Of a DNA stretch of 64,000 nucleotides, positions 11,720 to 63,400 are shown piece by piece (the first letter of the stretch is position 1; the number at the start of each line of letters is the position of its first letter). The notes under the pieces were generated by a model. It did no database searches, was not told the origin of the DNA, and saw nothing but the letters and a program-made list of their open reading frames with translations. A program made the translations under genes and the position numbers. This DNA is from Candidatus Omnitrophota bacterium (GTDB lineage Bacteria > Omnitrophota > Gorgyraeia > 1-14-0-20-64-10). The stretch is taken from contig JAMWCF010000002.1 of assembly GCA_023818695.1 (NCBI GenBank), positions 66 through 64,065 of the forward strand, in the 5' to 3' direction.

Positions 11720-11730
<11 letters not shown>

Positions 11731-16784: not shown

Positions 16785-16790
16785 GAGTGG

Positions 16791-16819: not shown

Positions 16820-16838
16820 GACGGCCGGCGGGCCGGGG

Positions 16839-17213: not shown

Positions 17214-17340
17214 GGATGCCGGCAACCAGCAACAAGCGACTAGCAACGGGCCGCCGTCTTAAGGTATTATGGTGACTGGAGATCAGAGAAGCCAGATGAG
17301 TCTACCGACAGCATACTGTCTCACCTGCGGAGGGTAGCGG

Positions 17341-20729: not shown

Positions 20730-20736
20730 AAAAACA

Positions 20737-23102: not shown

Positions 23103-23111
23103 AGGCGGCTG

Positions 23112-35866: not shown

Positions 35867-35923
35867 TAAATCCAGATATTCTCCTTGACTTTTTCAAAGC
35901 GCCCCACTATACTTCAAAGTAAC

Positions 35924-37777: not shown

Positions 37778-40700
37778 ATGTTAAATAAGTCAATAGAGAG
37801 AAAATATAAGAAAATGAAAACCGAAAACAGGACGACGATCACCTCCGTTTTCGCCGCTGTCACGGCGGCATCTTTCATTCTGACTCAAGTTATCCCGGCC
37901 TGGGCGCTGCGTCCGCAAGGGGCCTCCAGCCCCACCGTCCGGCAGCTTCTGCAGGCCGGTCTGGAAGAGCCGGGCGAGGCCGTCAGTCCCGTCATAATGA
38001 ACCCGAGGGTGAACGCGGCCTGGCAATCGCTGGCTTCAAGGGCCGCCAGACCGGACACGGGGCAGCCCGCCTCCACGCGCGAAATCCTCTGGGATATCAT
38101 GACCCAGATGGGGGTGGTCGATCCGGAACTGGCCGCCGCTCTGCCGGCCCGGCAGGTCCTGGATGAGCAGCTGGCGCAGATGATTCTGACCGCGCCGGGA
38201 CAGAACTGTCTGACCTGCGCCGCCCACGTCGTGGCCAACGCCTCCTTCTCCAGCAATGAGCAGACCTTGCCGGAGCCCTCGCAATCCGCCTGGTTCAACC
38301 AGAACGAGTTTCTGACGGCCCTTTTGATTACGCTGGACCTTTTGAACCACGGCCGGATCCTGTCCATCCCCGGTGAGGACGGCCATGTCCGCCTGGCGAA
38401 TTCCCTCTTGTCGGTGAAGGAAGCGCTGGAGGTGCTCCAGCGGAGACTTCCAGCGGAACGGCACCGGGACTGGACCGCCAGCCGGGTCAGCGCCAAGGAC
38501 CTTCAGCAGCTCCTGTCGCAGGGGGCCACCGTGGTGGCCCATGTCGGAGGGAACCACTTCGTTCACGTTCTCGGCATCGAACGGGGAGAGGTGATCTATT
38601 CCGAACCGGCCGTTGACCGCCTGGACGGCCAGCAGAGAAAGCCGATGGATGAGTTCCTCTCCTGGTGGAAGGGCAGAAGCAACGAGGGGGTCGTCCTCAT
38701 CGACCGGGCCGCGCCGGAAGGGCGGGAGGCGCTCACCGAGAATCAGATGCGTGGGATCATCGGCTGCTGCGGCATCAACTCCGTTTTCGGTCAGTACGGC
38801 GGTATTCGTTCCATTTTAGACGCGGTTTTGCGCCTGAAGTACCGGGCCCCGGACAACACAGGCATCGCCGTCATCTCCGAGGACGGCTACAGGGTGGTCA
38901 AGGCGGGCAAGGACGTGCACGGCCAGGGAGACGGCGGGCCGGATACGATGATCGAGTACATGTATTCCCACCCGATCTATCCGGAAGGTTTTCCACAGCC
39001 GTTCACCATCGTTCCGGGCAACTCATACCAGCCGGACCAAGGTGTCGTTCAGGCGATCCAGGAGTTCATTGACAGAGGCCGCGACGCCTGGAGGCGGTCA
39101 CGGCAGACCTCGAACGCCCAGGAACGGGTGGCGCTCCGGCAGCAGGCAGCCGGTTTCTGGGCCGAGGCCCGCCGCCGGGAGAGAGACTGGCTCATCAGGT
39201 CGGCTGTGCATCAGGCCAGAATGCAGGGGTTTGATCTTCTGCGTGAAGAGGGATTACTGGAGTTTGTTCCCACTCCGACCGACGCGCAGCAGGGCAACTG
39301 GCCCCTGCACGATCTGACCCAAACGCCGTTAAGGGACCTTTTTGAAGGGCGGGTGAGCGTCCAGGCCGGCCGCGTGGGCGGCGTCTGGGCGGGCGATCAG
39401 TTTCTCATCCGGCACGATGAACTGCCGGCGATGGTTAAGGAGATCGGACGTCTCTTCGACCTGACCCCGGAATTCGTCCGGATCTTCCTCAGGGCGGAGC
39501 TGGTCCGCTCCCTGCAGGAGGCAAGGGGATTGCCGGCCGGCAAGGCCCAGGAGATCCTGAAGGTTTACGATCTGCTCTCCAACCGGGCCCTGGCCGGCCA
39601 GATAGAGTCCAAGCACCAGGAGCGGTGGGATGAGGTGATGGACTATTTGGTGGGCCGGTGGCTTTGGATCCCGTCCGACTACAACGTCGATACGGTCCGG
39701 CACACCTTCCGGATGCAGATGGCCTTGATCGGCATGTTTCAGGTCAACGCGCAGTGGCGCGCCGAGGTCGAACGCCGTTTTGAGGAGCGGGTGCCGGGAA
39801 AGGACAAGGACTGGCTGAAATACTGGAAGCGGGAAAGGGATTTGAACACACCGGGCCATGCCTATGCCGCGCTGGTCGACTGGTTCCATGACTGGGCTCA
39901 CGAGCAGAAGGTCGATGTTACCACCCCGGAAGGGGCGGTCGTCGAGGTGCCGCTCCTTGCAAACGAGGTCTACGAGCATATTGTCCAGATCCGTACCCAG
40001 CAGAGGAACACCACCGTCTTCAGCCCGACTCAGCCGACGAAGGGGACCTATCAGCGGGGCTACTCCCTGGGCACCGTGAATGAGGCGACCGTCCGTCTGA
40101 TGGGGGAGGTCATCGTCGGTCACGGCCGGTGGGCCATGACCGGAGATCCCAGCCGGTGGAACGCCCATCCCCACAATACCCAGACCCGCGTTGTCGCCCA
40201 CAACGGGCAGGTGAAGGGGACCACCAACAGCGCTTTGAGGAAAGAGCATAAGGAAGCTCACACCCAGCCGGGGCCGGAAGCCGCCCAGTTCAAGCCTTAC
40301 GAAGCGTATTACTGGGAGGAGGAGGCGACCCCGTCGGGAAAGGCCCGCTACGAGATCGTCACCGACACGCGGACGATCGTCGTCCACTGGGACTATGTGG
40401 CCAAGCAGTTCGAGGTGGACAAATCGGCCGGCCGCGTGCAGGCCGACGGCCTGACGGTCAAGACCGACGTCCCGGGACAGCTCAACCAGAACCGAAACGA
40501 GTTCAACCGAGCCGAGGCCTGGAACAGGGTGGTGGAGAACCTGCGCCGGCAGGGTCGCAAGAACATCAGCGTGGACGAGGTGGCTTTCCGGGTGGCCCTG
40601 ATGGAGATGCAGGACGGTTCCGAGCTGGGAGTGAACGCCAGCAGTCTCCACAATCCGCTGGTCAACTACGTGGTCAGCCACGACCGGCCGGTAGACATCG

Positions 40701-43700: not shown

Positions 43701-46700
43701 TCAACGATTCGGCCTGGCACGGTCCGCTGGCCGCCGTGGACCCGAACCGGCGCAAATACGCGGATCAACCCAGCGATCCGGGATACCGGTTCAAGTACGG
43801 CGTCAACGGCGCCTATTCGCTGGACAACGATACCCTGGTGGTCTTCCTGATGACCGACAGCAAATTCTCCGATTCCTCCATCACCGACGCGCAGGTGTAC
43901 GATTCCAGGAACGGCCGCTTCCTTCTGGTGACATTGCGTGACAACGCCCGGAAACCGGGAGTTGGAGAGCCGCCGAACCTAGTCCGGCGCTCCATCGTCG
44001 AAGCGGGGCCCGTCAAGATATCGCCGATCGGGGAAGCGGAGGTGAACGACCCGAACCTGCAGAATCCGGAGGGGATCTTCTCTATCCCGAACGCTCCCGA
44101 TGCCTTGGGGAACTTCAACGTGGCGGCCTTCGCGGCCCTTTTCAGCGAAGGTTTCCGGGATTTCCACAACCAGGCCGTCGCGGATGGGCCGAAAGACCCT
44201 CCCTCCAGATTCCGTCCATCCGGCTACACCGGCCCGACGCCGACTCCCGCTGTGGACGTTCCGAGCGATTTCCTCCGGCAGCGGATTCGCCCCGAGGCGC
44301 TGCGCCAGCTCGGAGATTCCGGCCTGGGGGACCTGTACCGGATGTACCAGGCCGTCGTGCAGACCGACCAGCCGCAGGTTCGGTTATACCAGGACATCCA
44401 TGACCCGAACCGGACCGCCATCACCATTGCCGTGTGGGACCGCCGGGGTTTGCTGGGGGAGATCGGGGATGCGATCTCTAGGCAGGGGATCAGCATCGAT
44501 AACGATATCAGCGACAACTATCCGGAGCAGGCGTCGGCCGGGAAGAACCGGGTGGCTTTCTTCCTGATCGATGTGCAGCAGCCGCTGTCAGCGGTTCAGC
44601 AAACGGGGGTAGAGCAAGCCATCAGGAAGACCCTGGTTATCCAGCCGGTCGAAGCGGCGCTCATGGCGCAGTATGGGGTTCGCCTCTCCGAGGATGAGAT
44701 TCGGTCGCTGGTGCAGGCCTATCATACTTACTCGGAAGAGGCACCGCTGGCCGCCGGGGCCGGACCATTGCCCGTTCACGTGGAGTTCGGGGAGCACCCA
44801 AGAGCCGCCAACCGGGCCAGACTGTATCTGGTCGGGCCGTCTCGGAATGCCCCGGCGCAGTTCATCCAGGAGGTGTTGAATCAGAGCAAAATCGCAGGCG
44901 TTGTCACTTTCGCGGAAAGATTCCAATACGGCAGTCAAACTCCAGCGGTGACGCTGGCCGTGGCCGAGGTGGAGATGTCGCCGGAGGATTTGTCGAGAAG
45001 CGGGATCCGGGAAGCGCTGGTTCAGAGCTTCCAGGTCTTCTCCGCCGGTTTGGAAGGGCAGTACATCAGCTGGCAGGAGGAGGTGGACAACCACGATCCG
45101 ATCGCCGCCATCCAGACCGCGATCCGGGATTCCACCTTCCTGCGCGCCATCCGTGACGTGAACGTCACGACAGCGCCGGACCGGTGGCGGGCAGCGGAGC
45201 GGTTGAGGGTTTTGCGGCCGGCAGAGATCGAGCAGCTTCAGCGCCAGGGCAACTGGGCGGAGGATTGGTCCCGGGTCCGGATCGCTTCGACGATGACGGC
45301 GGATAACCTGGAGCTGATCCGGAAGAACGAATTCCACGGCGACATCGAGATCGGCCACATCGACGCCGGGACGGTCACCCTGCCGGATAAGGCGAAGAAG
45401 TCAAGGGGGATCGTCGGCTCCGAGCTACGTAACGTCCGCTTGGGATCGAACGTGGCAATCCACCAGGCCGACATCACCAACTACGTCATCAAGCAGAACG
45501 CCGTCGTGGTCGGCACCCGTCTGGTTGCCGATCCGGAGACGACTTTCGGTCTCCAGCAGGCCTATGAGATCGAGAACGAAGCGGGCCGTCGGGAGCTTTT
45601 GGTCTATCCGGAGCTGACCCTCCAGGGGGCGGAGAATCTGGCCGCCCGGCTGCTTTCCGACAAGAAGCTGGCTGCCGATTACCAGGAACAGCATGACCGG
45701 TACGTTCGCCTGGCCAAGTCCAAGTGGGGCATCGTCGAAGAGGACGCCGTGGTCGACCGGGTGGCCGGCGATATCGTGAACACCTATATCGGCAGGGGGG
45801 CCGTCATCGAGCAGGCCCAGCATATCAAGGAAACGGTGATCCTCACCGGTTTCACGCCGGTCGAGTTGAAGGAGCTGCAGGATCTGGCCAGCGGCGCCGT
45901 GACCAGACCGACGCTCCTGCCCGGTCTCGCTTTGAGGACGCTGGAGGTAGCGCCCAAGGTCAAGAAGAACGCCCTGAAGGCTTTGCGCGAGAACCCCGAG
46001 GTCGCCATGGCCCTGTTGCTCAAGGACCAGCGACCGGTCATCAAGAGCGCCGCTCAGATCCAGTTCGCGGTGATCAAGCAGGGGGTCCATGTTGCCTCCG
46101 CGGCCCAGCTAGTCAAGATCTTCGCGGACGAGCACTCCACTTTCGAAGAATCGGTGAACGTGACCAACATGTATGCCGGTCCGGACAGCTTCTTTGCGAA
46201 GGGGGAGTTCGGCTCGGTTCTGGCGGAGGCCTTCGTGGTCAGCCATCACAAGGGAGCTTTGAGTCTCGGCAACCTGCTTCGGCTGGGGATCAACATCGGA
46301 TCTGCGGGGCAGACCTCCAACCACGATGGCTACGGGCCGGACCAGGAGGCAATCATCGCCCGGGGGACTTTCATCGGGACCGGCGTCATCTTCGTCTACC
46401 CGATTAACCTGGACAAGTCGCCCCATTCGCTGCTGCAGACCCAGATTAAGCTGTCTCCCAGACAGAAGGTGACTTTCCCCGCCATGCTGATGGGCAAGCC
46501 GGATCCGGGGGTCCTCTCGCAGATCGGTGCCAGGTACCGGGACTACAACGAGGTGGTGCCCGGCTGGGTGCTCGACAGGATGCCGTACCTCCTTTTTCGG
46601 AACCAGGACAAGTGGCAGGCCCGGCAGAACGCGCTCCGGTACCAGTTCGATTTCAACATCCTCCAGCCGGACATCGTGGACTGGATGCGAGAGGCGAGGG

Positions 46701-47869
46701 CCAACCTGAACGTGGTCTCCCCCGGCCAGGAGCAGGATTACTACATCGGCGAGCAGGGGAACCAGCAAAGACCGATCGGCATCCAGGGTCTCGGCAACAA
46801 CTATCTCCAGGAGAAGAACCGGAAGCAGGGAATCGAGATCTACACCCGGTTTATCCGGTACTATGCCCTCCAGGCCCTTTACAGGCAATTGGACCGCCTC
46901 CTTGAAGCGGGTCAACTGACGGCGGCCAACGTCAACGCCCTGATCACGCAACCGTCGGATGACCGCCGGTGGGAGCATGCCCGGCGGACGCTGATCCAGG
47001 AGTTGGCCGGCCAACCGCTTAGCTCCATCCTGGACAATGCGGCCGATCAGTCCGGCCTAGTCCAGATCCAGCAGAGGATTCTCAACGATACCATCCAGGA
47101 CCTGGACAATCGCACCACCGCCTTCAACGAGCTGATGGGGCCGGGGGGAGCCGGGGTGATGGTGCCGGCGGAAGCAAACAAGTTTGTCCGGGATGTTTTG
47201 AGGCCTGACACGGAACGACTTACCGCCCGGGTGGGGGAGATCGTTCCGGCCCTGACCGCTGCCGGAGCCAACATCGAAGTGCCTGTGATCTCGGCGGGTC
47301 TGGAAGGGGAACCGGTTTTGGATACACCGGCGCCGACGGTCATCGGGTTGCCGCCTGTCACGTCCGGCACCGCGGTGGATATCGCCGAGCAGAGAGCTCC
47401 CACCGGTTTCGACTGGATCATCCGGCGGGGTTCTTTGCCGGAGGCCAGATCACAACTGGGTTCGGTGGGGGTTGTGGCCAGTAACGCGGCCGACCGACGC
47501 GGTTTGGCGCTGGGGTTGGCCTTGATGCGGGCGGTGACCGCCGACGGCCAGCCGGTCCCGGTCGCGTTTGTCGTGGAGACGGCGAATCAGAAAGCCACCC
47601 TTATCGAGATGGGAGTCACCTCCACATCGATCTTCCAGGCGGGGTTGGAAGGGGAGTATCCCAGTGTGGAAGACGCCAACAGGGCGGCCAACCAGTGGTT
47701 GACCATCGCCTATGGTGTGGGACAGGTGGTGGAGCTTGGAGTCACCCAAAGAATTCTCCAGACTCTTCAGCAGATTCTGGCGAACATCTTCAAAGTTGTG
47801 TTGACGCCCGAGTCGTTGGCGGTCTGGGAGCGGTTCGTGGGAGACGCCACCTTGGCGCTGCAGGCGTAA
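37778..47869 (+). CDS. Giant multi-enzyme protein A (3363 aa): anchor/leader, C39/papain-like peptidase, expanded GlmS-like module, extra SIS-like domains, ACT pair, hexapeptide/LbH region, shared C-terminal domain
   Basis: A single uninterrupted ORF. Motifs are listed in the domain-level features below. The alternative start at M13 (37814) gives MKTENRTTITSVFAAVTAASFILTQVIPAWA. Confidence 0.85.
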   Translation: MLNKSIERKYKKMKTENRTTITSVFAAVTAASFILTQVIPAWALRPQGASSPTVRQLLQAGLEEPGEAVSPVIMNPRVNAAWQSLASRAARPDTGQPASTREILWDIMTQMGVVDPELAAALPARQVLDEQLAQMILTAPGQNCLTCAAHVVANASFSSNEQTLPEPSQSAWFNQNEFLTALLITLDLLNHGRILSIPGEDGHVRLANSLLSVKEALEVLQRRLPAERHRDWTASRVSAKDLQQLLSQGATVVAHVGGNHFVHVLGIERGEVIYSEPAVDRLDGQQRKPMDEFLSWWKGRSNEGVVLIDRAAPEGREALTENQMRGIIGCCGINSVFGQYGGIRSILDAVLRLKYRAPDNTGIAVISEDGYRVVKAGKDVHGQGDGGPDTMIEYMYSHPIYPEGFPQPFTIVPGNSYQPDQGVVQAIQEFIDRGRDAWRRSRQTSNAQERVALRQQAAGFWAEARRRERDWLIRSAVHQARMQGFDLLREEGLLEFVPTPTDAQQGNWPLHDLTQTPLRDLFEGRVSVQAGRVGGVWAGDQFLIRHDELPAMVKEIGRLFDLTPEFVRIFLRAELVRSLQEARGLPAGKAQEILKVYDLLSNRALAGQIESKHQERWDEVMDYLVGRWLWIPSDYNVDTVRHTFRMQMALIGMFQVNAQWRAEVERRFEERVPGKDKDWLKYWKRERDLNTPGHAYAALVDWFHDWAHEQKVDVTTPEGAVVEVPLLANEVYEHIVQIRTQQRNTTVFSPTQPTKGTYQRGYSLGTVNEATVRLMGEVIVGHGRWAMTGDPSRWNAHPHNTQTRVVAHNGQVKGTTNSALRKEHKEAHTQPGPEAAQFKPYEAYYWEEEATPSGKARYEIVTDTRTIVVHWDYVAKQFEVDKSAGRVQADGLTVKTDVPGQLNQNRNEFNRAEAWNRVVENLRRQGRKNISVDEVAFRVALMEMQDGSELGVNASSLHNPLVNYVVSHDRPVDIVLLGDRILVTSDYAAGIALFPAPEVAQAAQTLSQMQQDLLRTLEQFRELRASGQYTEEMYVEEVKEALADYERRADPIRKKYQVDVYHLKELNKFARITRRVDEKGQARLNIDITHLDGSPLSENEVKNEARLKKETVSPELGVKGSYRTFMELHIDEIPKILLDNAVSYMTITGGQATAVNIPTIKVDNLRQRFGQNLQNLKRLFLIGVGSSWRDAKVAEQLFRQLLPGVEILVYDPVEIQNLGIKLNPETDLAIGMSWSGTTASMVKLFEGFSKEGIAMMAVTGKPGSTLAQLGSDSAGMIDVKSGPEASVATTKGFESVLYCLCLTGVQLSQVQGDPSLEQERRLFVQDLWRVVDHVHSLIVEPGKQGAQRVLDSSEDVDSLVNRVARTWKNRQKVLVIGSRNNPVYIEGELKAEEIAWLVGKAADISDESWRNLVARTGDPNVPEAERVATIFNMTDPARLDEFMRAIQEVTDAGIQVVVQTFDKDNKHLAALQQLQREGKIELVIVPRVRLTLQGLVDAPLFFRFSLALARARGLTDANIDNSRNLAKSVVVSGARSLQELVRTSAARYVTIQEQAGYVGDAGSKFNAYRRQMPRIWASLQSGRVQAIARLPVLLNAAVNRWLEPGASSILAQPADRDRAQKLLEGFIQAAKAPKPAARVVIVTDEEATQYAGEAAVGPLGSREVVVSGEHSDLYNPDKGVRVRVGGWYYRVFYDQAQSRYRIRYVPELNPFAQGQQPVDTDITIASGQASVIINGREYQVDPRSFDVDKGQLVSGLQMKASQPDLLLAGTENVKVYRSVDQGIDQMVDQGTMVVLVSRGRNRGAANVQVPPIPSALTMRSPRDLPRNPDEQPEDNMVALAQRLRDRGVPFITITDDVSRLNDPQLDPTRVTHLPLGTDVDDINLYSLTYLGLLTIGARVGELLGRDTADFQASLKTVPGMVAQLVSDQSIRRQMEDLLRVLKQYRKIHIIGGGQADGKEFARLLSMNGIFAEAQLNDSAWHGPLAAVDPNRRKYADQPSDPGYRFKYGVNGAYSLDNDTLVVFLMTDSKFSDSSITDAQVYDSRNGRFLLVTLRDNARKPGVGEPPNLVRRSIVEAGPVKISPIGEAEVNDPNLQNPEGIFSIPNAPDALGNFNVAAFAALFSEGFRDFHNQAVADGPKDPPSRFRPSGYTGPTPTPAVDVPSDFLRQRIRPEALRQLGDSGLGDLYRMYQAVVQTDQPQVRLYQDIHDPNRTAITIAVWDRRGLLGEIGDAISRQGISIDNDISDNYPEQASAGKNRVAFFLIDVQQPLSAVQQTGVEQAIRKTLVIQPVEAALMAQYGVRLSEDEIRSLVQAYHTYSEEAPLAAGAGPLPVHVEFGEHPRAANRARLYLVGPSRNAPAQFIQEVLNQSKIAGVVTFAERFQYGSQTPAVTLAVAEVEMSPEDLSRSGIREALVQSFQVFSAGLEGQYISWQEEVDNHDPIAAIQTAIRDSTFLRAIRDVNVTTAPDRWRAAERLRVLRPAEIEQLQRQGNWAEDWSRVRIASTMTADNLELIRKNEFHGDIEIGHIDAGTVTLPDKAKKSRGIVGSELRNVRLGSNVAIHQADITNYVIKQNAVVVGTRLVADPETTFGLQQAYEIENEAGRRELLVYPELTLQGAENLAARLLSDKKLAADYQEQHDRYVRLAKSKWGIVEEDAVVDRVAGDIVNTYIGRGAVIEQAQHIKETVILTGFTPVELKELQDLASGAVTRPTLLPGLALRTLEVAPKVKKNALKALRENPEVAMALLLKDQRPVIKSAAQIQFAVIKQGVHVASAAQLVKIFADEHSTFEESVNVTNMYAGPDSFFAKGEFGSVLAEAFVVSHHKGALSLGNLLRLGINIGSAGQTSNHDGYGPDQEAIIARGTFIGTGVIFVYPINLDKSPHSLLQTQIKLSPRQKVTFPAMLMGKPDPGVLSQIGARYRDYNEVVPGWVLDRMPYLLFRNQDKWQARQNALRYQFDFNILQPDIVDWMREARANLNVVSPGQEQDYYIGEQGNQQRPIGIQGLGNNYLQEKNRKQGIEIYTRFIRYYALQALYRQLDRLLEAGQLTAANVNALITQPSDDRRWEHARRTLIQELAGQPLSSILDNAADQSGLVQIQQRILNDTIQDLDNRTTAFNELMGPGGAGVMVPAEANKFVRDVLRPDTERLTARVGEIVPALTAAGANIEVPVISAGLEGEPVLDTPAPTVIGLPPVTSGTAVDIAEQRAPTGFDWIIRRGSLPEARSQLGSVGVVASNAADRRGLALGLALMRAVTADGQPVPVAFVVETANQKATLIEMGVTSTSIFQAGLEGEYPSVEDANRAANQWLTIAYGVGQVVELGVTQRILQTLQQILANIFKVVLTPESLAVWERFVGDATLALQA
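38180..38707 (+). other. Domain in giant A: C39/papain-like cysteine peptidase fold (candidate)
   Basis: The candidate nucleophile context is APGQNCLTCAAHVVAN (Cys144, codon 38207-38209). The downstream segment VVAHVGGNHFVHVLGIERGEVIYSEPA (His260, codon 38555-38557) parallels the C39 pattern Q...C-G ... H-[FY]-V-V-L ... D-P. Confidence 0.45.
38762..42376 (+). other. Domain in giant A: GlmS-like (glutamine--fructose-6-phosphate aminotransferase) module, about twice canonical length
   Basis: - GATase-II motifs: GIIGCCGINSVFG...LRLKYRAPDNTGIAV, GHGRWAMTGDPSRWNAHPH and RVVAHNGQV.
- SIS motifs: SYRTFMELHIDEIP, LFLIGVGSSWRDAKVA, LAIGMSWSGTTAS, SGPEASVATTKGFES and IEGELKAEEIA.
- The GlmS C-terminal signature NSRNLAKSVVV (canonical PRNLAKSVTVE) is present.
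- About 400 aa are inserted between the first and second glutaminase motifs. Confidence 0.75.
44378..45040 (+). other. Domain in giant A: pair of ACT-like small-molecule-binding domains (candidate)
   Basis: TAITIAVWDRRGLLGEIGDAISRQGISIDNDIS...RVAFFLIDV follows the ACT beta-alpha-beta-beta-alpha-beta pattern. A second, weaker unit is ARLYLVGPSRNAPAQFIQEVLNQSKIAGV...AVTLAVAEVEM. Confidence 0.4.
45065..47290 (+). other. Domain in giant A: left-handed beta-helix / hexapeptide-type region resembling DUF4954-type proteins
   Basis: It starts right after SAGLEG (45041-45058). LRPAEIEQLQRQGNWAEDWSRVRIA...NEFHGDIEIGHIDAG...GSELRNVRLGSNVAIHQADITNYVIKQNAVVVGTRLV shows hexapeptide-like periodicity. The assignment to DUF4954 is from memory and unverified. 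Confidence 0.4.
47291..47869 (+). other. Shared C-terminal domain, copy in giant A
   Basis: It begins at SAGLEG (47291-47308) and ends ...VWERFVGDATLALQA-stop. It aligns with 59976-60467 over ~160 aa at roughly two-thirds identity by eye. Confidence 0.8.
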
Positions 47870-47881
47870 TTCGAATTTCCT

Positions 47882-47911
47882 GGGCCGGCGGGTTTGGTCC
47901 TTCGCCGGCCC
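47882..47911 (+). terminator. GC-rich stem-loop between giant genes A and B (no U-tract)
   Basis: GGGCCGGCG (47882-47890) pairs perfectly with CGCCGGCCC (47903-47911) around a 12-nt loop, 13 nt after the stop codon. It is followed by AT-rich DNA up to the next start. Without a T-run it may be an attenuator or processing/stability element rather than a terminator. Confidence 0.3.
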
Positions 47912-47984
47912 ATCCATATGAAGCAGGACAACGCGGAGGATTTTTTGTATCCTGTAATTTAATAGTATTTAATTTTTGATTTTC

Positions 47985-50900: not shown

Positions 50901-53900
50901 GCGCAAGCCCGCCAGCAGGTTTGGCAGCGCAACCAGCTGGATTCGGACTTCGTGAAAAGGGTCGCTCAGCTGACTCAGCAGCTCCAGTCCGAAACGCAGG
51001 CAATCGCGCAGGCGATCCAGGAATCGGAGATTTACCGGCGGGAGTTCGAAGCGACCGTCGAGTGGCTGGCCCGCCGCGAGGCGCTGGACCGGCTTGATCA
51101 GGAGAAACCGGCCCTGCAGATTCAAAACCGGTTTCGGCACTGGTACCGGGCCCACACCGCCTTGGGCAGGACCACAGCCCGCAGAGAGACCGTGGCGGCC
51201 CACAACCTCCACGCCGCCATGAGCGATCCGCGGCACGCCTATTCCAGCGGGACGACTCTGGACACCAAGGACGGGAAATTCCGGCCGACAGGCGGGCGCA
51301 AGCGGTACCACCTGATCTACGCCCCGAGCCGCGTGAACCTCGGCAAGGGGGAGCGGGCCTCCGTGGAGATCTGGCCGCAGTGGGTCGGGGTGGCCGATCC
51401 GCTGGCCGCCGCCCACGCCAAGCGCTTTTACGAATTGATGAACTTCAATCCGCAGATCCGGACCGTGAAAGAGGCGGAGAACCTGAAAGTTTCCGAGAAC
51501 CAGTGGACCGCCATGATTCGGGCCGTGCGCAACGTGCAGGCCTATTTCGTCACCCGTTTGGGATATGGGGACATCGAGGATCTCGCCTTCCAGTTCAACC
51601 AGCGGGGCGGACTGCCGGTGGCAGCCGTCAAGGAGCCGGAATCTTATTCGGCGGGGCCCACCACCGGCTACTGCATCCCGAAGGATCTGTTGTTCAAGCT
51701 TTTCGTTGCCACCCTCCAGGATTCTAGGAAGCTCGCCCAGATCGGCGTGCCGGCCCATCTGCATCCTGTGGTCCAGAGGATGATAGTTCGTATCGCCGCC
51801 AGGCAGGGGGATTTTGAGACAACCGGCGAGTGGGAGCAGTGGGCGGTCGAGGAGCTGCTGTCCGCTCAGGCCCTGCAGGCGATCTTCAAACCGGCCGAGG
51901 CGAGCCAGCTTCAGAAGATCTTTTCCTCTTACGTGGAGGTGACCGGCGGGGCGGTGATCTTCCATATCACCAAGCTGTCCCAGATCCTCCAGACCACCGG
52001 CATGCCCAGCCCCCTGCTGGCCCACGGCAGCAACTTGCACGCTGCCTTGTGGAGCAACTGGGCCGACCGAAGCTTGACTCTGCCGGCGGAGGAGGTCAAC
52101 CGCTCCGTTGTTTTCAGCATGACCCGGGATATCCCGGAGTCGGCGGCGGAAGCCCGGCGGCTTAACCCGGAGGCAGGCGTGGTTCCCGAGCAGCAGCTAC
52201 GGGTCCATTTCTTCGGCACCTACAAGGGGGACGAGGACGAAGCCCCCCCGCCGGACGTCCGCTATTCTTGGACGATGCGGGCCTTCATGATCATGAGCGG
52301 GTACGGCAGGGAGGTGGCGCTGTCCCTCAACGCCGAGGGCCAGCTGTTGGCCCGCTTGAGCTGGGAGGGATTCCGGCCCGATTCCGATGACCCGGAAGAC
52401 GTCAAGGTGACGCGGTATCTTGCCAGGGAATTCGTCGGGCAGGATCAGTTTGCTCCGGAGCACGATGAGATCATCAAGCGCCTGAAAGCCGCCTTCCCGC
52501 CGCACACCACCGTCGGCGACATCACCGTGACCGTTGTGCCGGGTGTTTCGTCCGAAGACCTGCTTGGGTTCAGCGCCGAGACCGCCACCCTCTTGGGGAA
52601 CGAGGCGACCCAAGCCCAGGAATTGCTTCAGTCGAGAGGGATCTCGGTGGAGCAGATGCGGGCCAACGCCGTCCTGCGGCGGCAGTTTCCGGAAGAATGG
52701 ATCCCGCTCAACGATCTCTCCGGACCGGAACAGGATCTGATCAAAAAAGCGATCGGCGGGCAGATCCATCCGCTGGTCCTGCGCTTGAGGGGACCGGGGG
52801 ACGATTTCAAGAGGGATCTGCAGGGGCAGGACGTTGTTGTCTTTTCCGTCACCCATCCGGAGATCATGCAGATGGACCCGGCCCATTTAAGGGACCTGAT
52901 GCTGACCGGCCGTCCGCAGAGCGCCCTCTGCACGCTGGATTTCGTCGCGCAGGGGCGGCATCGGGTCTGGTTCGACCGGGACATCATGCTCTGGTACGCG
53001 GCGGGCCGGGGCGTGGATTCAGAAGGTCGGCCGATCGCCGACTGGCGGCAGAGGGACGCGAAAGGCCGCAAATCGGTTTACCGGGCTTTCGGCTGGGGGG
53101 CGCAGGAGTTCAGGCCTTTGCTGGGCACCGATCTGCGGGATGAGGTGATCCGGCAGGAGCGCCGGGCCACGGATCTGTTCGAAGTTTTGCGCCGGGTGGC
53201 CAACGCCCGCACAGCAGATCTGCCGAAGGCGATCGAGCGGTTCAAAGCCGCCTACCGGGAGAGTTTCCCGCCCGATAAGATCGCCATCGAGGCCGATCTG
53301 GCCCGTCAGTATGAGCAGCAACTCCTTATGAACAAACGCTTCAAATCAAGGGACCGGATCATCCGCCAGGCGTTTGAAGATATCGCCACCGGCATGCCGG
53401 CCGAGCAATTCGGCGTCGTTCATTGGCTTTCCACCGGCGGGCTCTTCCTGCTCAACGGCGCTCCCCAAGCGCAGCAGGAAGAGGTGCTTGGCGTCATCCG
53501 GACCGCGCAGAAGAGGATGCAGGGTGTCAACAATTCCGCGGGCCTCGAGGAGAGCGAACTGGTGGCCCTGCTAATCAAACCGCAGCTGACCGCCGCGGCC
53601 ATCCAGCTGACCGAAAGGAAAGGGGAGATGTTCTCGGTCAAGGCCAGCGAGACGGTGGTGGAGAAAGCGGTGGCCCGCCGAAAAGGACTGGCTCTGCAGG
53701 CGGCCCGCCAGGCGGCCGTGAGATCGCGCGAACAGGGGTTCCATTCGGTGGAATCGCTGACCGCCATCGGTCAGGTCGATGGGGCTCTGCAGGCAGGCCG
53801 ACAGAACGTTCTCTCGATCATCGGGGATCTTGAATCCGGCGTTCCGGTCGATTCCTCATCGGTTCACCGGCGGGTCGGTGTGGTGATGGGGCACACCGTG

Positions 53901-59900: not shown

Positions 59901-60467
59901 CGCGAAGTGATCGATGTGGAGCCCAGCGGCGGCGCTACCGGCATCGGCGTCCGGACCGATCTGAAAACCGCTCCCTCAGCCGGGTTGGAAGGGCAGCCGG
60001 TTGCCGTTGCCGACTGGGTTGTCGCCAAAGGTTCTTTGCCATCGGCGAAGACGGAAGTTCCCTCTATTGGAGTGATTGCCGGGACCGCCGATCCTCGTGG
60101 GTTGGCCTACGGAGTGGCCCTGACTCGGGCCGTTACTCCGGACGGCCAGCCGGTTCCGGTCGTCTTTGTCGTCGCCACCGACGGACAGAAAGCCAAACTG
60201 CAGGAGATGGGAATCACCTCCGGCTCGATCTTTCAAGCGGGGCCGGAAGGGGAATACCCGACCGTCGAGGCCGCTTCCCGGGCTGCTTCCCAGTGGCTTT
60301 CCACCGCCTACGGGGTCGGGCAGGTGGTGGAACTGGGGGTGACGCGGCGGATTGTGATGACCCTCCAACAGATTCTGGAGAACCTTTTTGGCATCAAGCT
60401 GGTATCGGAAGCGTTGGCTGTCTGGGAACAGTTCGTCGACCAGGCCACATTGGCCCTCCAGGCGTAA
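47985..60467 (+). CDS. Giant multi-enzyme protein B (~4160 aa): anchor/leader, ~1100 aa unassigned helical region, nucleotide-sugar dehydrogenase-like module, two ATP-grasp-like modules, REC-like domain, GHMP sugar-kinase module, shared C-terminal domain
   Basis: A single uninterrupted ORF (the track gives TTG 47976). The ATG at 47985 or 47988 gives MMERTSRHHFINRISAWLLIQALILSPASVPVFG. Motifs are in the domain-level features below. Confidence 0.85.
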   Translation: MMERTSRHHFINRISAWLLIQALILSPASVPVFGTDDRALSGQTLRVQQPEGEAVRSQIGSRLAASAGLEENLVVQPYRGFTTRVRRVTDKGLQVAKREVGELIGTTSIDLASGTVANAQLAAGTGAADQNGLNAVRVVEWTQSGLQWLLAHQDLPAVTRLLQRLQDKDKTFPVELRANHANTLDFTDQEAAIRLDTTIGSELQEPQYSGGRTLLYAVGLFHELAQAAGFTPREAAHLVLNIYTGMTTAERQQLQAVLRTPVIDHGDTWALFLEDATRLPAPELAEYAGVDSLTLEERLDGEPDAQQQGRMLAVRNHRDRWVSWMMGQTMVDLPYDRLAFRRAMEIQNVEEKRQASYQVIRNFDRDVEADNARRVGAIVREQWLPEEFPYPVLLAGRESRAFGNQAFLFANSGYALKTTDVAEAAQALMEIAKAHALERELQQVIETAPPWAQGELTKSVRQIKELLAHLGPGTGRIRQLIFGPGTVVAMTQFSGALQQLRENLEIFYNQARVALRQSQQRTVKTSQEGIGRRLQREDVSAGFARAQQELSRFAGESGLVALAINRLEEAMLKAETYAAAYSVLMQRPSRTGSEKFKGNELEEKPEQEEALRKLVRLGGQNTYMSPSYEWVAEATDIIEAAPLFIYERTIEMDGKHVTVFEVDQEGLEQTIRQMADYWAQNIEKTIDSEHLALAREVVVLSNGALADAARLLIQTGLPAEAAYRQVLAESAPQQQGLLGQVARVAAWLAAEYNKRAEKIEARVEEAWSRQNFIGRMEALRLEVIGDPSKGNYPDRARQAVGRADRASTSLQKETERLLPNALMRQRPLPAFHLLTTEAPGLVEGFIQTVLEEEMALRNVVRANDFENEVKERERRYARLIQEIGWRVIQEFGYEPIVAQYEAQGMTRPQAISQVVGDHLPIQQEVARLAVLIELAETDAQAQGTTFTFNAAQPNIPWVANLLSNAATLTGFQAQARQQVWQRNQLDSDFVKRVAQLTQQLQSETQAIAQAIQESEIYRREFEATVEWLARREALDRLDQEKPALQIQNRFRHWYRAHTALGRTTARRETVAAHNLHAAMSDPRHAYSSGTTLDTKDGKFRPTGGRKRYHLIYAPSRVNLGKGERASVEIWPQWVGVADPLAAAHAKRFYELMNFNPQIRTVKEAENLKVSENQWTAMIRAVRNVQAYFVTRLGYGDIEDLAFQFNQRGGLPVAAVKEPESYSAGPTTGYCIPKDLLFKLFVATLQDSRKLAQIGVPAHLHPVVQRMIVRIAARQGDFETTGEWEQWAVEELLSAQALQAIFKPAEASQLQKIFSSYVEVTGGAVIFHITKLSQILQTTGMPSPLLAHGSNLHAALWSNWADRSLTLPAEEVNRSVVFSMTRDIPESAAEARRLNPEAGVVPEQQLRVHFFGTYKGDEDEAPPPDVRYSWTMRAFMIMSGYGREVALSLNAEGQLLARLSWEGFRPDSDDPEDVKVTRYLAREFVGQDQFAPEHDEIIKRLKAAFPPHTTVGDITVTVVPGVSSEDLLGFSAETATLLGNEATQAQELLQSRGISVEQMRANAVLRRQFPEEWIPLNDLSGPEQDLIKKAIGGQIHPLVLRLRGPGDDFKRDLQGQDVVVFSVTHPEIMQMDPAHLRDLMLTGRPQSALCTLDFVAQGRHRVWFDRDIMLWYAAGRGVDSEGRPIADWRQRDAKGRKSVYRAFGWGAQEFRPLLGTDLRDEVIRQERRATDLFEVLRRVANARTADLPKAIERFKAAYRESFPPDKIAIEADLARQYEQQLLMNKRFKSRDRIIRQAFEDIATGMPAEQFGVVHWLSTGGLFLLNGAPQAQQEEVLGVIRTAQKRMQGVNNSAGLEESELVALLIKPQLTAAAIQLTERKGEMFSVKASETVVEKAVARRKGLALQAARQAAVRSREQGFHSVESLTAIGQVDGALQAGRQNVLSIIGDLESGVPVDSSSVHRRVGVVMGHTVQVLRRLAEDLVQDEKERQRIRRQIAALTQGRELSSRVWNSFGGTYEDSGILARLFELAGEANRPAVLAAMELLYTSLALERTADFLVLPAEDVDERLLYRAAAGFFAETIDDHFYEYNPWALDPKRASTFVGLYDDLGVLKPEHREEVYGLSWSHHRVLYQYFRYLFLNKTGFKDLSTADQDLLLGRVQIGDSAEQDQLTVQAVGASAPGRYERLWRAYGQFRELAFVRNDGFAIPVAFENLDADDPEILNASRKVNHAFLSGVGRTHYSRALMEAGHLGENIFITRDGVVATPAGARGAVLQISDAHFWLTPGRYRHALIRYKGMSPTEADQQIAADMKAGRITPKGIRVAARFARPVTVGSVVALHHHYQELELAKVGYPATDKSPVLFEYTYDKSLYPSAYNPPDQTGVNLPPEVDWHAQDTQQLPMATAKQRIRDLVRPFAEEHGIIVAKGSAESGARNFKRFDILVNGQVDEQVLQEAVDFIYEVSKGQNVTIQRAIIVTPLSWMDPTAIEQFVERQIRDWSVPVNLERHPKSWVYGTLRVILSAGMPKDLAKLDDPANWQASHWISLNSLQVATNVGRQGTLEMLQPEMVRPEFRQTFIQELEKAGRQVMAATARYAKHYWDTVYVPAYTQKYGHPPQEFDAVGVPYWWPRYLMLDFLPEPIWAKNGQPVQGARVMDVIPGDPKKGTPSRFTLADSTGEIFEGQILGFKFWLLEPNVGIGLWPNYWRREEVHERGRAKALGQPMDWSRVGVSDRIVLNNYLAAGEAFLRAKFGDDHFGPGGPQRGGPDPFVPPSVTSPTASQPLMATSTPMQHGVETVQQAGAATIGSAQMSRIFVEAALRAMAAPMESLRLETPEVLLDRINQWLADPARVQEFPQGVGVSVTHEQVDQALSDSVYRGRVAELTLDRILSESVAPQVDILPEPLSAAATAQLMPHLLTFGVVTGKRAVMNHHIYPWAAGRGNAPVNVVGVHEEWLTPDGRVSRAVVWKEEAGRFVEVSFQEPVALTHAFVVELLPDDEPGRHQQLNDRLEKAGVQLINPALRSGLRLDDKGWIAENLPADMTETLVRVMPAGMDSSYRYSFAREVLAQSPRGVIVKPTPGTEGHGVRWFQDASGVLDYLNSFKGKSGVLISPFRGNVTYQGRPVVLRFNVINGRVTTATAVVGEAGGKIASLGQGGTVEPLQEVLADLRDETGQPVSITAGVWEALRLRAQEAARRADIGIVGVDMVLESSPQAGVQGIIVEMNARPGILVFGERVTFPEDGPIESQPAPVTDSHFWSSLTVPGRPWSPAAESLRRVLVICDDPVVRGHILTVMARRHPWVHVEAVSNLTQAIAYLEGVNNGEQPIPDLILDQSSESGRLVGPSSELWLEFLRHQSRMNIPYAVGGPVGEYDLDSSVSMMRGMTETFTLSQWQQILADPVKSGFRSALSRFVPVERLNVEIERVRRLVDEAAARNVSLGGNAAEPLFKADARVALSFSPGRVRFFMGHSDIRGIGGQTINAATNYGMWALTQVIEDPQGRVVADNLDPQYGFYEFNLNGPDSLPPAGISSVRPDWLAWAEAHADADKWHGLPRAVIALIRTDMLDPQGQRRIYFQGKGIRFFLGESDLPVGKGLSSSSALPAVFYRGIQQFLPPFLRLRGKGLNDLDYAAYVVGDRAGTADMTAINMGRVGEVSVLKSFPEEQGETVKLPSDFRFFVVDSGVKRIDAPDQPTQVKNFAAFIKSMTGMGPSLAAVWLRRQARVDTALADLESILMHEPAGHPFGLLRELTEAGVITKPQYADMVGGTTPQARGEFVRGLLELIPNDQTLGQLRQAIEQTPNSNDLLQAFDGLLAGFTPLGAHQIPVDAPDKDQQLHALRLNSVIPLRQLAAYGIFEIGRGLDYVESAKAGDTRRLIKLMRKAHDGDRAVWTLGPGDTLVPTAWGQTNPPEAFFRSLPEIDAMIDEFQTAMDGQFGENAAAGRIMAAGLGGAVAVGVVAEAYEAAKQWFAAYNGGREVIDVEPSGGATGIGVRTDLKTAPSAGLEGQPVAVADWVVAKGSLPSAKTEVPSIGVIAGTADPRGLAYGVALTRAVTPDGQPVPVVFVVATDGQKAKLQEMGITSGSIFQAGPEGEYPTVEAASRAASQWLSTAYGVGQVVELGVTRRIVMTLQQILENLFGIKLVSEALAVWEQFVDQATLALQA
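51300..52905 (+). other. Domain in giant B: UDP-glucose/GDP-mannose dehydrogenase-family-like module with insertions
   Basis: - HLIYAPSRVNLGKGE resembles PERVxPG.
- The central helix is EAENLKVSENQWTAMIRAVRNVQAYFV.
- The catalytic-Cys motif is GPTTGYCIPKDLL (canonical GFGGSCFPKD; Cys codon 51672-51674).
- The C-terminal domain pattern is VHFFGTYKGDEDEAPPPDVRYS ... DVVVFSVTHPEI.
- No clear N-terminal GxGxxG was found. Confidence 0.55.
55180..56240 (+). other. Domain in giant B: ATP-grasp-like module 1 (candidate)
   Basis: EHGIIVAKGSAESGARNFKRF (K-x-G-S-x-x-G), RAIIVTPLSW and FWLLEPNVGIGLW (E-x-N-type loop) are present. The pattern is weaker than in module 2. Confidence 0.4.
56760..57690 (+). 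other. Domain in giant B: ATP-grasp module 2
   Basis: PRGVIVKPTPGTEGHGVRWF, GVLISPFRG...LRFNVINGRV and GIVGVDMVLE...GIIVEMNARPG follow the RimK/glutathione-synthetase-type ATP-grasp pattern. Confidence 0.6.
57801..58170 (+). other. Domain in giant B: receiver (REC)-like domain embedded between ATP-grasp and kinase modules
   Basis: LRRVLVICDDPVVRGHILTVMARRH...VEAVSNLTQAIAYLEG...PDLILDQ carries the acidic pair and the Asp at the expected spacing of a receiver fold. Downstream T/K positions are unclear. Confidence 0.45.
58320..59960 (+). other. Domain in giant B: GHMP sugar-kinase module (galactokinase-like)
   Basis: The galactokinase-type signature is SPGRVRFFMGHSDIRGIGGQTINAAT (canonical GRVNLIGEHTDY). 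The GHMP ATP-binding motif is LPVGKGLSSSSALP (canonical PxGSGLGSSAA). Confidence 0.65.
59976..60467 (+). other. Shared C-terminal domain, copy in giant B
   Basis: It begins at SAGLEG (59976-59993) and ends ...VWEQFVDQATLALQA-stop. It is a paralogue of 47291-47869. Confidence 0.8.
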
Positions 60468-60480
60468 TGGGACGGAACGC

Positions 60481-63400
60481 ATGACAGAAAAAAAATCCAT
60501 CAACCAGGCGGTGAAACTGATCGCGTGGGTGTTAATGCACGCCCTTGTTGTGACCCAGGCGTGCCCTGCATCCGTCTGGTCCGCTCCTGCCCATTCGGCT
60601 GATGGGCAGACCCTGCGGGTTCAGCAACCGGAAAGCGATGTGAGCCGCGCGCAGATCGCCGGCCGGCTCGCCGCCAGCGCCGGCCTGGAGGAGTTGACCC
60701 CCGCCAAGCTGATCGACGGCTGGAGCGGGTTCTCCCAGCCGGACCGCAAGCGTCTCGGGGACCAGCTTCGCCGCCTCGCCGACAAACCGACCCTCGCCCG
60801 CCTGGTGGAGTACGCCCAGAATTCGATCAATCCCCCGTACACCCTTTATGAGCTGTTGGCCAAGGTTCTCGGCCAGCCGATACCGGTGGTCCAGGCGATG
60901 GTCGAGGGGCTCAACCCTTCGGCCTACCGGCCGCCGCAGACGATTTCGATCGGGGAATCCCACCCTATCCTGTGGAACGCCGACGAGGTCCGGCAGCATC
61001 TGGAGAACACCGTCATTGTCATCGCTGCAGGCGGCGGCGGCGCCCGCTTTAAGCGAAGTTTGTGGACCAAGCTGCGGGAACAGCTGGAGCGCAACCACCG
61101 TTTGGAGAAGCCGACCGTCATGGTGGGACCCTCCGGGACGAGCCCGGTGGTGCATACTTTGGAGGAGATTTCGGAGCTGGCCCGGTTGGTCGGCGCCAAG
61201 AACGTCCGGGTGGTTGTCGTCGCCTCCCCCGACAGCATGGAGGCGGTCCAGGGGGATATCAAGAAGAACAGCCGCTTCGTCGATCCTAAACGGGTCAAGG
61301 TGCGGGTGACCGAACAGAAGACCCACCCCAGCTTTCACACGACTTCAGGGAAGATCCTGACCACCACGGACGAGCAGGGCAGGCCTGTCCTTTTGAGGAA
61401 CCCCAACGGCACCTACGGCGCCTTTTCAGCCGGTTATGAGCTGGCAAAGAAGGAAGGGTTCGCGGCGGGAAAATCTTGGCTCGTCCTTTACGGGGATGAT
61501 CCGGTTCTCAACTCCGGCGATTTCATCGCCCGGGTCCTGACCATCGGAAAGGATCTGGATGTCGCCCCGATCGTCACCAGGAAGATCTCCCGGACGAACC
61601 CGGTGGGCGGGACCCTGGTTGACGTGGAGCTGTCTCCGGGGCTGGTCCTTCCTTTGATCATCGAGAAGGCGGAGAGGGAGCCGAACGCCGCCGCCGGGAT
61701 TCCCGGCTTGCCGGCCTTCAACCAGGTGGAGGATGCGGCGGCCCAGACCGGCAACGACCCGTTCGGGTTCAACACCGGCGTCATGAAGCTGTCGGCTCGC
61801 GCGGCGGAGGTAGCCGGCGGCCTGATCCTGCCGATCCGCCACGCCGACCGGGAGAGGGACGACTTGCCCGGAAACATGCGCCGGAACATGGAGCTTTTCG
61901 CCACCCATATTCCCACCTATGTCATCGGCACGCATCCCGAGATGACCTACCGGCCACTGCAGGTGGAACTGGAGCAGTACGGAGCGACGAAAGATTACGG
62001 AAAGGTGGTGGAGGCGAACCTCTCCCGGGATGCCCGGAGCCGCCAGCGGTTGAACCAACTGCTGCAGGCGGCGCCCGCCGTGCAGGTGCAGATCGGGGAG
62101 AATGTTTACCTGGATATCCGCCCCAGCTTCCAGGGTTTTAAAGGAAAGGGAACTTTGGAGCTGAAGGGTCCGATGGGGGTTGTCCTCTCCCGCGACGGCC
62201 TGACCGCCGTCCGGATCATCGAGCGGCATGCCGAGGGAAACAATCATCCCCTCTATGCCGACCCGGGGCAGGGTCAGCAGATCATCGCGGCCACAAACGG
62301 GATCATCGACCTGACAGGCGATCAGGTTGTGGACGGCTCGCAGATTTTTGCCGGTCAGGAAGAGCCGGTTCAGATCTTAAAGAGCTACTTCCCGGACCAG
62401 CTCCAGGGGCCGGGCGAAAAGCCGTTCTGGATGCAGGGGTTGACCCCGGTGGACACCCTGGCGCAGATCATCCCGGCGGCGCAGCTCGACAGCAATTCTG
62501 AAATCTGGATCCTGGGCGGTGGGGACGGCCGGGTCGGGATTGCCGCCGCGGTCCTGGCCAAGGTGAAAAAGGCGGTTTTTGTGGAAGTCGACGATGGTGC
62601 GCTTGCGGCAATCCACGCGGCAGCAGACCATTTTGTCGGCTTGGGACTGGTCAACCGATCCCAGATCGGGATTATGCAGGCCAATATATTTTCTCCCGAT
62701 TTTCAGGTCGGCCCTGACGCCACCCACATCTACCACACTGTCGGGGGTGCCTATAACCCGGAGGGGCACGGGGCCGAACAGGTCATTCCCAAAAATGTTT
62801 TCCCCCAGGTGATCGAAAAGATCAAACAGGCCCCCGTTGGAACGAGAGTCATCTTTTATCTCGGCGCGGAGGGGGAGGTTCCTCATTATTATGAACAGGC
62901 GGTCATATCTTCCGGTTTGAACCCCTGGTTTGTTTCCGGGTTGGACCAGAACATCGTCCAGATCTACCGGGTCCCGTCCGCCGGGCTGGAGCAGATGCCG
63001 CCCTCTCCCATCACCGGTTGGATCGCGGCAGATCTGGGCAACGGCTGGCGCCGCCTGCTGTACCAGCTCCAGAACGGGGACGCCTGGTTCGGGGGTTTGG
63101 TCCGAAACGACGTGCCGGACTCCCAGATCGATGACACCGCTTATATTTCACCCAGCAGCACCGTGGAAGGGAAAGCATCCCGCCTGGAGGCGGGAGCCGT
63201 TGTCAAGGACGGCAGCGCGGTCGTCGATTCGGTCATCCAGCGTAACGCCCATCTGATTGCTTCAATCGCGGAGTCGGCGCGCATCCGTCCCATGGCGGCG
63301 CTGAAAGGGGCCGTTGTTCGTCCGGCCTACGAGGAGGATGATTGGTCCTACAGCGGGGCGACCTCTTCCGATCCCCGGTTGTCGGTGAAGCACCATGAGG

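Follow-up and report, generated by a model that had tools for sequence, protein, structure and literature searches.

A 64,000-nt stretch of a Candidatus Omnitrophota assembly (GCA_023818695.1, contig JAMWCF010000002.1, positions 66-64,065, forward strand), hereafter the window, carries three tandem plus-strand genes for giant multi-enzyme proteins. Giant A (37778-47869) has 3363 amino acid residues (aa), giant B (47985-60467) has 4160 aa counted from the first ATG, and giant C starts at 60481 and runs past the window end with at least 1173 aa. The subject of this study is the leader at the N-terminus of each giant and the five-residue motif, AGLEE, at which that leader ends. In an all-against-all BLASTP comparison, the similarity between A and B was limited to the last 152 residues (68% identity), and that between B and C to the leader (aa 1-91, E 3.5e-11). 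Recognisable domains are few in the giants; in Pfam and NCBIfam scans, A showed DUF4954 and a GlmS-like module that combines a class-II amidotransferase with SIS, and B showed a galactokinase/GHMP module. Judged from their sequences, the giants appear to be chains of enzyme modules. In front of each module stand a variable linker rich in Pro and Ala and a five-residue tag, [A/G/S]-G-[L/M]-E-[E/G], and a shared alpha/beta C-terminal module is the last unit. All the features of the giants located below lie on the plus strand.

The initial annotation of the window had described A, B, and C as opening alike with a basic N-terminus, a hydrophobic stretch, an LRxQ segment, and AGLEE, and translation reproduces the strings that it gave. 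A reads ...IPAWALRPQGASSPTVRQLLQAGLEE (aa 1-64), B reads ...GQTLRVQQPEGEAVRSQIGSRLAASAGLEE (aa 1-71), and C reads ...GQTLRVQQPESDVSRAQIAGRLAASAGLEE (aa 1-71), the leaders of B and C being 48% identical across 72 aa. In A, the signal-peptide-like segment (aa 1-43, 37778..37906) has an n-region with a net charge of +5, followed by an uncharged stretch of 26 residues with the hydrophobic core, and AWA stands right before the LRPQ box (37907..37918); an alternative start is M13 (37814), and the orthologue L001_g1 reads PVWALRPGQ at the box. The first delimiter of A is AGLEE at aa 60-64 (37955..37969). In B, a signal-peptide-like segment (aa 1-35, 47985..48089), whose h-region ISAWLLIQALIL is kept in P0001, P0003, P0009, and L012, is followed by the LRVQ box (48117..48128) and by AGLEE at aa 67-71 (48183..48197). 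C has the corresponding segment (aa 1-35, 60481..60585), LRVQ box (60613..60624), and AGLEE at aa 67-71 (60679..60693). The box continues as LRVQQ in both B and C. When all six frames of the window were scanned, no other hydrophobic stretch followed by LRx[QP] was found.

Is the leader missing from homologues in related genomes, the outcome that the initial annotation had named as damaging to its proposal? It was found to be present there. A full HMMER search with aa 1-1200 of B gave 119 relatives, the closest of which are proteins of 3600-5600 aa. The clade considered here comprises the window and about seven other genomes or metagenome bins; P0002 and P0009, close relatives of B, are annotated as Candidatus Omnitrophota, and the records of two related metagenome-assembled genomes (CAYJVR01 and CAYJQV01) are labelled uncultured Planctomycetia. 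The same leader architecture heads P0001, P0002, P0003, P0005, P0009, L001_g3, L004_g2, two genes of L012, and L014. For example, the leader of P0001 reads ...ISAWVLIQALIFSP...DQTLRVQQPEG...VAGLEE, that of P0003 ...LSAWIVIQALLF...ADTLRAQSTEGRAQAGLEE, that of P0005 ...GSALRQRSDTAGLEE, and that of P0009 ...ADALRTQSAEGAAKSGLEE.

Thirteen leaders, those of A, B, and C and ten homologous ones, were compared. The n-region has a net charge between +1 and +5 in every leader (+2 in both B and C), the following uncharged stretch is 22-29 aa long and comprises about 12 hydrophobic core residues and a tail rich in Pro, Ser, and Ala, with small residues ahead of the LRxQ box, and the net charge of the 25 residues after the stretch is +1 or lower in 13/13. 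Between paralogues as well as between genomes, the core keeps its sequence, xAWxxxQ/HALxx. In several leaders, small residues occupy positions -3 and -1 directly before the box (AWA↓LRPQ, VWA↓LRPG, SFA↓LRQS, GSA↓LRQR, and ADA↓LRTQ; the arrow marks the candidate cleavage point). For A, B, and C, the candidate signal-peptidase sites are AWA↓LRPQ, VFG↓T, and VWSA↓P, respectively, and the homologues have equivalent ones; the [L/M]RxQ box would lie at, or a few residues past, the likely signal-peptidase site. The anatomy of the leader and its charge orientation thus resemble those of a signal peptide of the general secretory (Sec) pathway, which would place the bulk of the protein outside.

It had also been remarked that the leader stands in front of enzymes that normally use cytoplasmic substrates. 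This is the case for both recognisable enzyme types, since the catalytic motifs look intact in the GlmS-like module of A (HGRWA...NAHPH...HNG and SWSGTT) and in the GHMP module of B (kinase motif II, PVGKGLSSSSAL). These intact motifs would suit a leader that acts as a reverse signal anchor, not as an export signal, and such an anchor would solve the problem of substrate supply. The leaderless homologues described below are presumably cytoplasmic, and a 2026 preprint on Omnitrophota (10.64898/2026.06.07.730766) reads many long proteins as membrane-anchored with their bulk in the cytoplasm. However, a positive charge before the stretch and a neutral or acidic flank after it in all 13 leaders is the export orientation, with the N-terminus inside and the C-terminus outside. 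Moreover, the hydrophobic cores span few residues, about 12 in B and C, and are followed by a Pro/Ser/Ala c-region with AXA-like sites, as is typical of cleavable signal peptides. I therefore consider the reverse anchor improbable.

Other kinds of signal were also compared with the leaders. A twin-arginine translocation (Tat) signal, S/T-R-R-x-F-L-K, was rejected, since RR does not precede the core in A, B, or C; an RR pair was seen solely in the leaders of L012 (SIRRLSAW), where its context is poor. The lipobox [LVI][ASTVI][GAS]C of lipoprotein signals does not occur, as the leaders of A and B have no Cys and that of C has TQAC. A type IV pilin-like (class III) signal, G↓F/M-T-L-x-E, would require the reverse order of elements, and no hydrophobic segment follows AGLEE. 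Recent gene conversion between the leaders of B and C was rejected because of the synonymous differences between them. A profile of the B and C leaders, a short query for a huge database, had no match at E <= 0.01 among 5.8 billion proteins, and the leader had no match in the metagenomes of the Joint Genome Institute.

The more distant homologues of B lack the leader and start within a few residues of the position of B's AGLEE. Two of them, P0004 and P0006, come from the dictyostelids Polysphondylium violaceum (KAF2076817.1) and Synstelium polycarpum and are homologous to the conserved core of B. Both are roughly 3900 aa long, 38-47% identical to that core, and devoid of leader and AGLEE. Their occurrence suggests a transfer between bacteria and social amoebae, or contamination. 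As far as can be read from these alignments, the leader seems to be a portable cassette in which a Sec-type signal peptide is followed by the LRxQ box and then by a module delimiter specific to the clade, in its first copy.

AGLEE had been taken for the dedicated end of a dedicated export, anchoring, or leader module. The first half of this proposal has to be given up, as the same motif occurs at internal module boundaries, in up to nine copies per protein in the relatives; what stands is a real, conserved, and transferable N-terminal unit with the three-part anatomy of an export signal. Internal AGLE[EG] copies were found at aa 2423, 3173, and 3288 of A and at aa 1852 and 3999 of B, and variants at aa 4085 of B (AGPEG) and at aa 624 (AGQEE) and aa 834 (AGLEQ) of C. 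Counting strictly, AGLE[EG] occurs 8 times in A, B, and C together, while 0.062 occurrences are expected from composition (Poisson P 5e-15). The loose motif lies within the reading frames of the giants throughout the window, save two chance matches on the minus strand. P0002 has nine copies, L004_g2 has six, and L001_g3, P0003, and P0005 have three or four; relatives with 3-9 copies per protein come from at least six other genomes or metagenomes. A logo of 46 instances reads [A41 G3 S2]-G46-[L34 M12]-E46-[E42 G4], so that the G and the first E are invariant. The residue before the motif is small or Gln. The sequence upstream varies, with many Pro, Ala, Ser, and Gln residues, and no conservation is seen downstream. 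Thus, any event at AGLEE would concern all the module boundaries alike, the leader simply having the first of the copies.

It is true that AGLEE sits 36-73 residues from the N-terminus in A, B, C, and their close homologues, as would be expected of an N-terminus-specific leader or propeptide that is removed at AGLEE, with no role for the motif elsewhere. However, the motif also stands at internal module boundaries, where it is conserved at orthologous positions, and leader-end motifs of one genome align with internal motifs of others. These observations leave the N-terminus-specific version very little probability.

How do the motifs relate to the boundaries of the modules? In the cross-genome BLASTP comparison, the ends of the matching blocks lie 0-10 residues from a motif. 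This applies, for example, to P0001 aa 626 and B aa 64, to L004_g1 aa 1526 and both L011_g3 aa 73 and L009 aa 62, to C aa 833 and L001_g3 aa 72, and to the C-terminal modules. B from aa 64 onward matches P0001 from aa 626 and P0002 from aa 1481, and therefore the motif that closes the leader in B has its counterpart at junctions inside these two proteins (GGLEE at aa 629 and AGLEE at aa 1489, respectively). Likewise, C aa 1-634 matches the first 639 residues of P0001; the variant delimiter AGQEE at the end of C module 1 (aa 624-628, 62350..62364) aligns with the same GGLEE of P0001, where the B-like core starts. C aa 833-1173 matches the first module of L001_g3, and the variant AGLEQ at the start of C module 3 (aa 834-838, 62980..62994) aligns with the leader-end SSGMEE of L001_g3 (aa 73). 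A PGM-like protein of the clade (L009, 6007-9165) stops five residues past a delimiter (...FAAGMEETAWAA), which looks like the result of a giant being divided between two modules.

The motif is also conserved in place. The internal AGLEG at aa 2423 of A (45044..45058) is AGLEE at the orthologous position of L001_g1 (aa 2413). The internal AGLEE at aa 1852 of B (53538..53552) is represented by [AGS]G[LM]EE in six clade members, while distant homologues, including the dictyostelid ones, have the same loop without the motif. The flanks of this loop are conserved in the whole family and the motif is confined to the clade, which indicates that the motif was installed in pre-existing linkers and is not needed by the neighbouring folds. 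For the same reason, I rejected an integral role of the motif in the fold downstream of it. Motif and next domain are a fixed distance apart, with AGLEE, seven residues, and [RK]GF in seven proteins, and insertions and deletions occur just upstream of the motif.

The coincidence of module break-points with the motif might also be expected if the motif were a recombination scar, i.e., a short joint left by the shuffling of DNA cassettes and without function in the protein. However, synonymous variation was found at all five motif codons (GCC/GCG/GCT/GCA, GGC/GGT/GGG/GGA, CTG/TTG/CTT/CTC/ATG, and GAA/GAG), so that little usable DNA identity is left and selection must act on the peptide, not on the DNA. 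Furthermore, the peptide is kept at orthologous positions in proteins that are only 36-66% identical, while the adjacent linkers change. A scar is thus a most unlikely explanation. I am highly confident of the description itself, that is, of the cassette anatomy, the conservation, enrichment, and spacing of the motif, its coincidence with break-points, and the selection on the peptide.

The C-terminal module common to A and B begins exactly at SAGLEG. In A it spans 47294..47866, opening with SAGLEG (47294-47308) and ending in ATLALQA; a second AGLEG within it (47639-47653) is not conserved in the orthologues. In B it spans 59979..60464, opens with SAGLEG (59979-59993), is 68% identical to that of A, and contains AGPEG at 60237-60251. 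The module also occurs in P0001, starting with AGLEA, and in P0015, starting with AGLEE. The ending ATLALQA is shared by the window and P0001. The presence of a near-identical C-terminal module on otherwise unrelated giants of one genome was also observed in L011 (5359-9993 and 1-5355), where the copies are 93% identical, against 68% in the window. An AlphaFold2 model of the module (4 sequences; predicted local distance difference test score, pLDDT, 62.5) has an alpha/beta core, and its first 32 residues, motif included, are of low confidence. When the model was compared with the PDB by Foldseek, no match was significant and all were of a generic alpha/beta kind (best E 0.07, template modelling score, TM, <= 0.36). 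The module had no match in GTDB genomes. Neither the module nor module 1 of A had a match among 5.8 billion proteins, with 8000 word-sharing candidates. Since local BLAST does find the C-terminal module in P0001 and P0015, the negatives among the 5.8 billion proteins reflect the tool and not a true absence.

The GlmS-like module of A bears on the question of cutting. A Cys-Cys pair at aa 330-331 (38765..38770) marks the start of its class-II glutamine amidotransferase fold, and the sequence IIGCCGINSVFGQ...RLKYRAPDNTG is conserved in L001_g1. The nucleophile Cys is embedded 330 residues deep, in the context IIGCCGINS (CCGINSVFGQ...RLKYRAPDNTG). Some 390 inserted aa appear to interrupt the fold ahead of its HGRWA/NAHPH/HNG segment (aa 780-810). 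In class-II amidotransferases of the N-terminal nucleophile (Ntn) type, the nucleophile Cys must be N-terminal for activity. Thus, at least one internal cut would be needed if the domain works.

Which protease might perform such cuts? Module 1 of A (aa 66-328, 37973..38761) is possibly a C39/papain-like peptidase, although this is a weak lead. It has a Cys motif (GQNCLTCAAH, aa 141) and a His motif (GNHFVHV, aa 258), of which CLTCAAH and NHFVHV are shared with L001_g1. Peptidase_C39 (PF03412) matched module 1, and only in A, at E 0.03-0.07 with 13.5-14.6 bits, below the cutoff of 22. The C39 assignment was backed neither by sequence searches of the PDB nor by NCBIfam, and a single-sequence AlphaFold2 model of A aa 57-345 (pLDDT 43) was too poor for fold assignment. 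The [A/G/S]-G pair, which recalls double-glycine sites, is invariant in the 46 motif instances. In L011, a subtilisin gene (22122-23981, 619 aa, Fervidolysin N-pro-like plus Peptidase_S8) lies directly downstream of the B-like giant P0120. The encoded S8 peptidase is a candidate processing protease in that genome, and the equivalent position at the present locus falls past the window end. It has been proposed that Omnitrophota giants are cleaved, and C39 and S8 peptidase domains were described near their signal peptides, while the cleavage points were unknown and this blocked the analysis (West-Roberts et al. 2023, 10.1101/2023.11.21.568195).

I infer that the giants would leave the cytoplasm via Sec, with their bulk outside, and that a dedicated endopeptidase would then cut at or next to each delimiter, so that a giant would mature like a polyprotein. 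The cut at the leader AGLEE would detach module 1 from its signal or anchor. Export via Sec with later endoproteolysis seems the most likely course for four reasons. Firstly, leader-plus-motif units and internal junctions interchange in evolution, as expected if the products of cutting are the same. Secondly, the motif sits at the natural N-terminus of free-standing homologues. Thirdly, the internal amidotransferase Cys of A needs processing if the domain works. Fourthly, as mentioned above, others have already proposed the cleavage of Omnitrophota giants with C39 and S8 domains near the signal peptides. The modelled position of the motif, in the low-confidence first 32 residues of the C-terminal module, may be counted on the same side. 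Taken as a whole, with cleavage included, this sequence-based reading is a serious one that falls a little short of being probable.

Several points weigh against it. The candidate proteases are insecure, given the sub-threshold C39 match, the lack of support from PDB and NCBIfam, and the poor AlphaFold2 model. The signal peptides are assigned from sequence features, the clade is small, and most of the distant homologues, including the eukaryotic ones, are leaderless and presumably cytoplasmic. Enzymes that use ATP, glutamine, and sugar phosphates would be exported to a place with no obvious substrate supply. Finally, binding or a hinge function would account equally well for a short motif that is conserved where modules start.

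The last point leads to the main rival, namely that the giants stay uncleaved, secreted or tethered by a signal anchor, and that AGLEE is a hinge, an N-cap, or a docking site for a scaffold, a chaperone, or a modifying enzyme. The motif keeps its register relative to the module behind it and follows a flexible linker, no protease is securely tied to it, and many multi-domain giants work uncut; in addition, the alpha/beta module at the C-terminus of otherwise unrelated giants suggests roles in assembly or docking. On the other hand, the downstream domains of distant homologues fold without the motif, which speaks against a structural requirement. The interchange of leader-plus-motif units with internal junctions is most easily explained by equivalent products after cutting, and the internal amidotransferase Cys needs a free N-terminus for activity. 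I regard uncleaved giants as a possible but rather unlikely outcome. About as tentative is the most specific form of the cleavage reading, in which AGLEE would be the recognition site of a dedicated maturation protease. The giants would be exported via Sec and cut into free sugar-activating enzymes and accessory modules, which would act away from the producing cell, at the surface or in the interior of a host or prey cell that has ATP and glutamine.

Upstream of the giants, genes for the alpha, gamma, and beta subunits of an F-type ATPase lie directly beside type II secretion system (T2SS)/type IV pilus genes (GspE/PilB, GspF, PilM/N, and GspK-like) at 7519-24659. This pairing is the arrangement that has been described in Omnitrophota as a symbiosis-associated locus (PMC10066038). 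Sugar ATP-binding cassette (ABC) transporters, NagA-like and ROK genes, and a GH94 phosphorylase are also found upstream. A single open reading frame (ORF) of 748 aa (26166-28409) fuses an SBP_bac_1 extracellular solute-binding domain to an ABC permease domain, and the next permease (28412-29701) has a CBM30-like insert.

Directly before A lies a plus-strand gene of 618 aa (35885..37741). Its product is 32% identical over 535 aa to aa 27-557 of P0018, a protein of 5085 aa (BLASTP, E 3e-78), and also matches P0061; no Pfam family was found in it. It has a hydrophobic N-terminus of its own. By sequence, it seems to be a free-standing version of a module that is fused upstream of the B-like core in other Omnitrophota giants, and this links the gene to the giants. 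Between A and B, a GC-rich hairpin (GGCCGGCGGG...CGCCGGCC, 47884-47911) is followed by an AT-rich stretch. Thus, B and C, which are separated by a gap of only 13 nt, may form a transcription unit separate from A.

For the question of whether Omnitrophota giants act whole or in pieces, the motif gives concrete candidate cutting sites. It allows the giants to be split computationally into modules for structure prediction, and it predicts exact neo-N-termini that can be sought in metaproteomes. It also explains how modules may be fused, split, and given new leaders without any change in the final products. At the same time, the paradox of intact-looking ATP- and glutamine-dependent enzymes behind export signals is sharpened, which bears on the delivery of enzymes to the cell surface or to partner cells. 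If AGLEE is a maturation-protease site, the giants would amount to a system of secreted polyproteins in bacteria, in which the cleavage code is defined and modules can be exchanged freely.

The long proteins of Omnitrophota were already known to have signal peptides or transmembrane helices together with sugar-metabolism modules (Seymour 2023, PMC10066038; West-Roberts 2023, 10.1101/2023.11.21.568195; 10.64898/2026.06.07.730766). In the searchable literature, no mention of the LRxQ box, of the AGLEE motif, or of any delimiter was found, and the papers that a full-text search for AGLEE brought up were all unrelated. Giants from other lineages of Omnitrophota (P0018, P0048, and P0061) showed no comparable delimiter in a crude scan for enriched 4-mers. 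The giants of the window resemble the published ones in their multi-thousand-residue length, N-terminal signal, PGM, ROK, kinase, and GlmS-type modules, and Omnitrophota homologues, and their tandem genes likewise lie near F-type ATPase and type IV pilus/T2SS genes. However, ORFs of more than 20 kb are emphasised in the published work, whereas the present giants, at three to four thousand residues, are far shorter.

The leaders share with ordinary Sec (signal peptidase I) signal peptides the n/h/c order, the positive charge before the core, and, in several leaders, the small residues at -3 and -1 (AWA, VWA, SFA, GSA, and ADA). They differ from them in that the sequence of the core, with its embedded Gln or His, is conserved and is followed by the conserved LRxQ box. 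The [A/G/S]-G pair resembles the GG, GA, or GS pair that precedes the C39 cut in double-glycine leaders. The classical leaders of that type, however, are without a hydrophobic core, and a domain of an ABC transporter makes the single cut in the cytoplasm, whereas in the giants the conserved L/M-E-E lies after the putative cut, the site is repeated, and the C39 assignment is sub-threshold.

Multifunctional-autoprocessing repeats-in-toxin (MARTX) toxins are also very large exported proteins, with interchangeable modules between linkers and a module content that differs between strains. In MARTX, an internal cysteine protease domain cuts between the effector domains after a short Leu-containing site and releases the modules; for the giants, I infer the cutting. 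Unlike MARTX, A, B, and C gave no hit to Peptidase_C80, glycine-rich repeats, or a type I secretion signal in the Pfam and NCBIfam scans, and their export looks Sec-dependent. Polyproteins with a repeated protease site are known from viruses and bacteria, such as the 3C sites of picornaviruses and the adhesins of Mycoplasma hyopneumoniae, which are cut at S/T-X-F↓X-D/E. The giants resemble them in being one long product with a short recurrent motif at the boundaries of functional units; as neither sequences nor proteases are homologous, this likeness is one of function.

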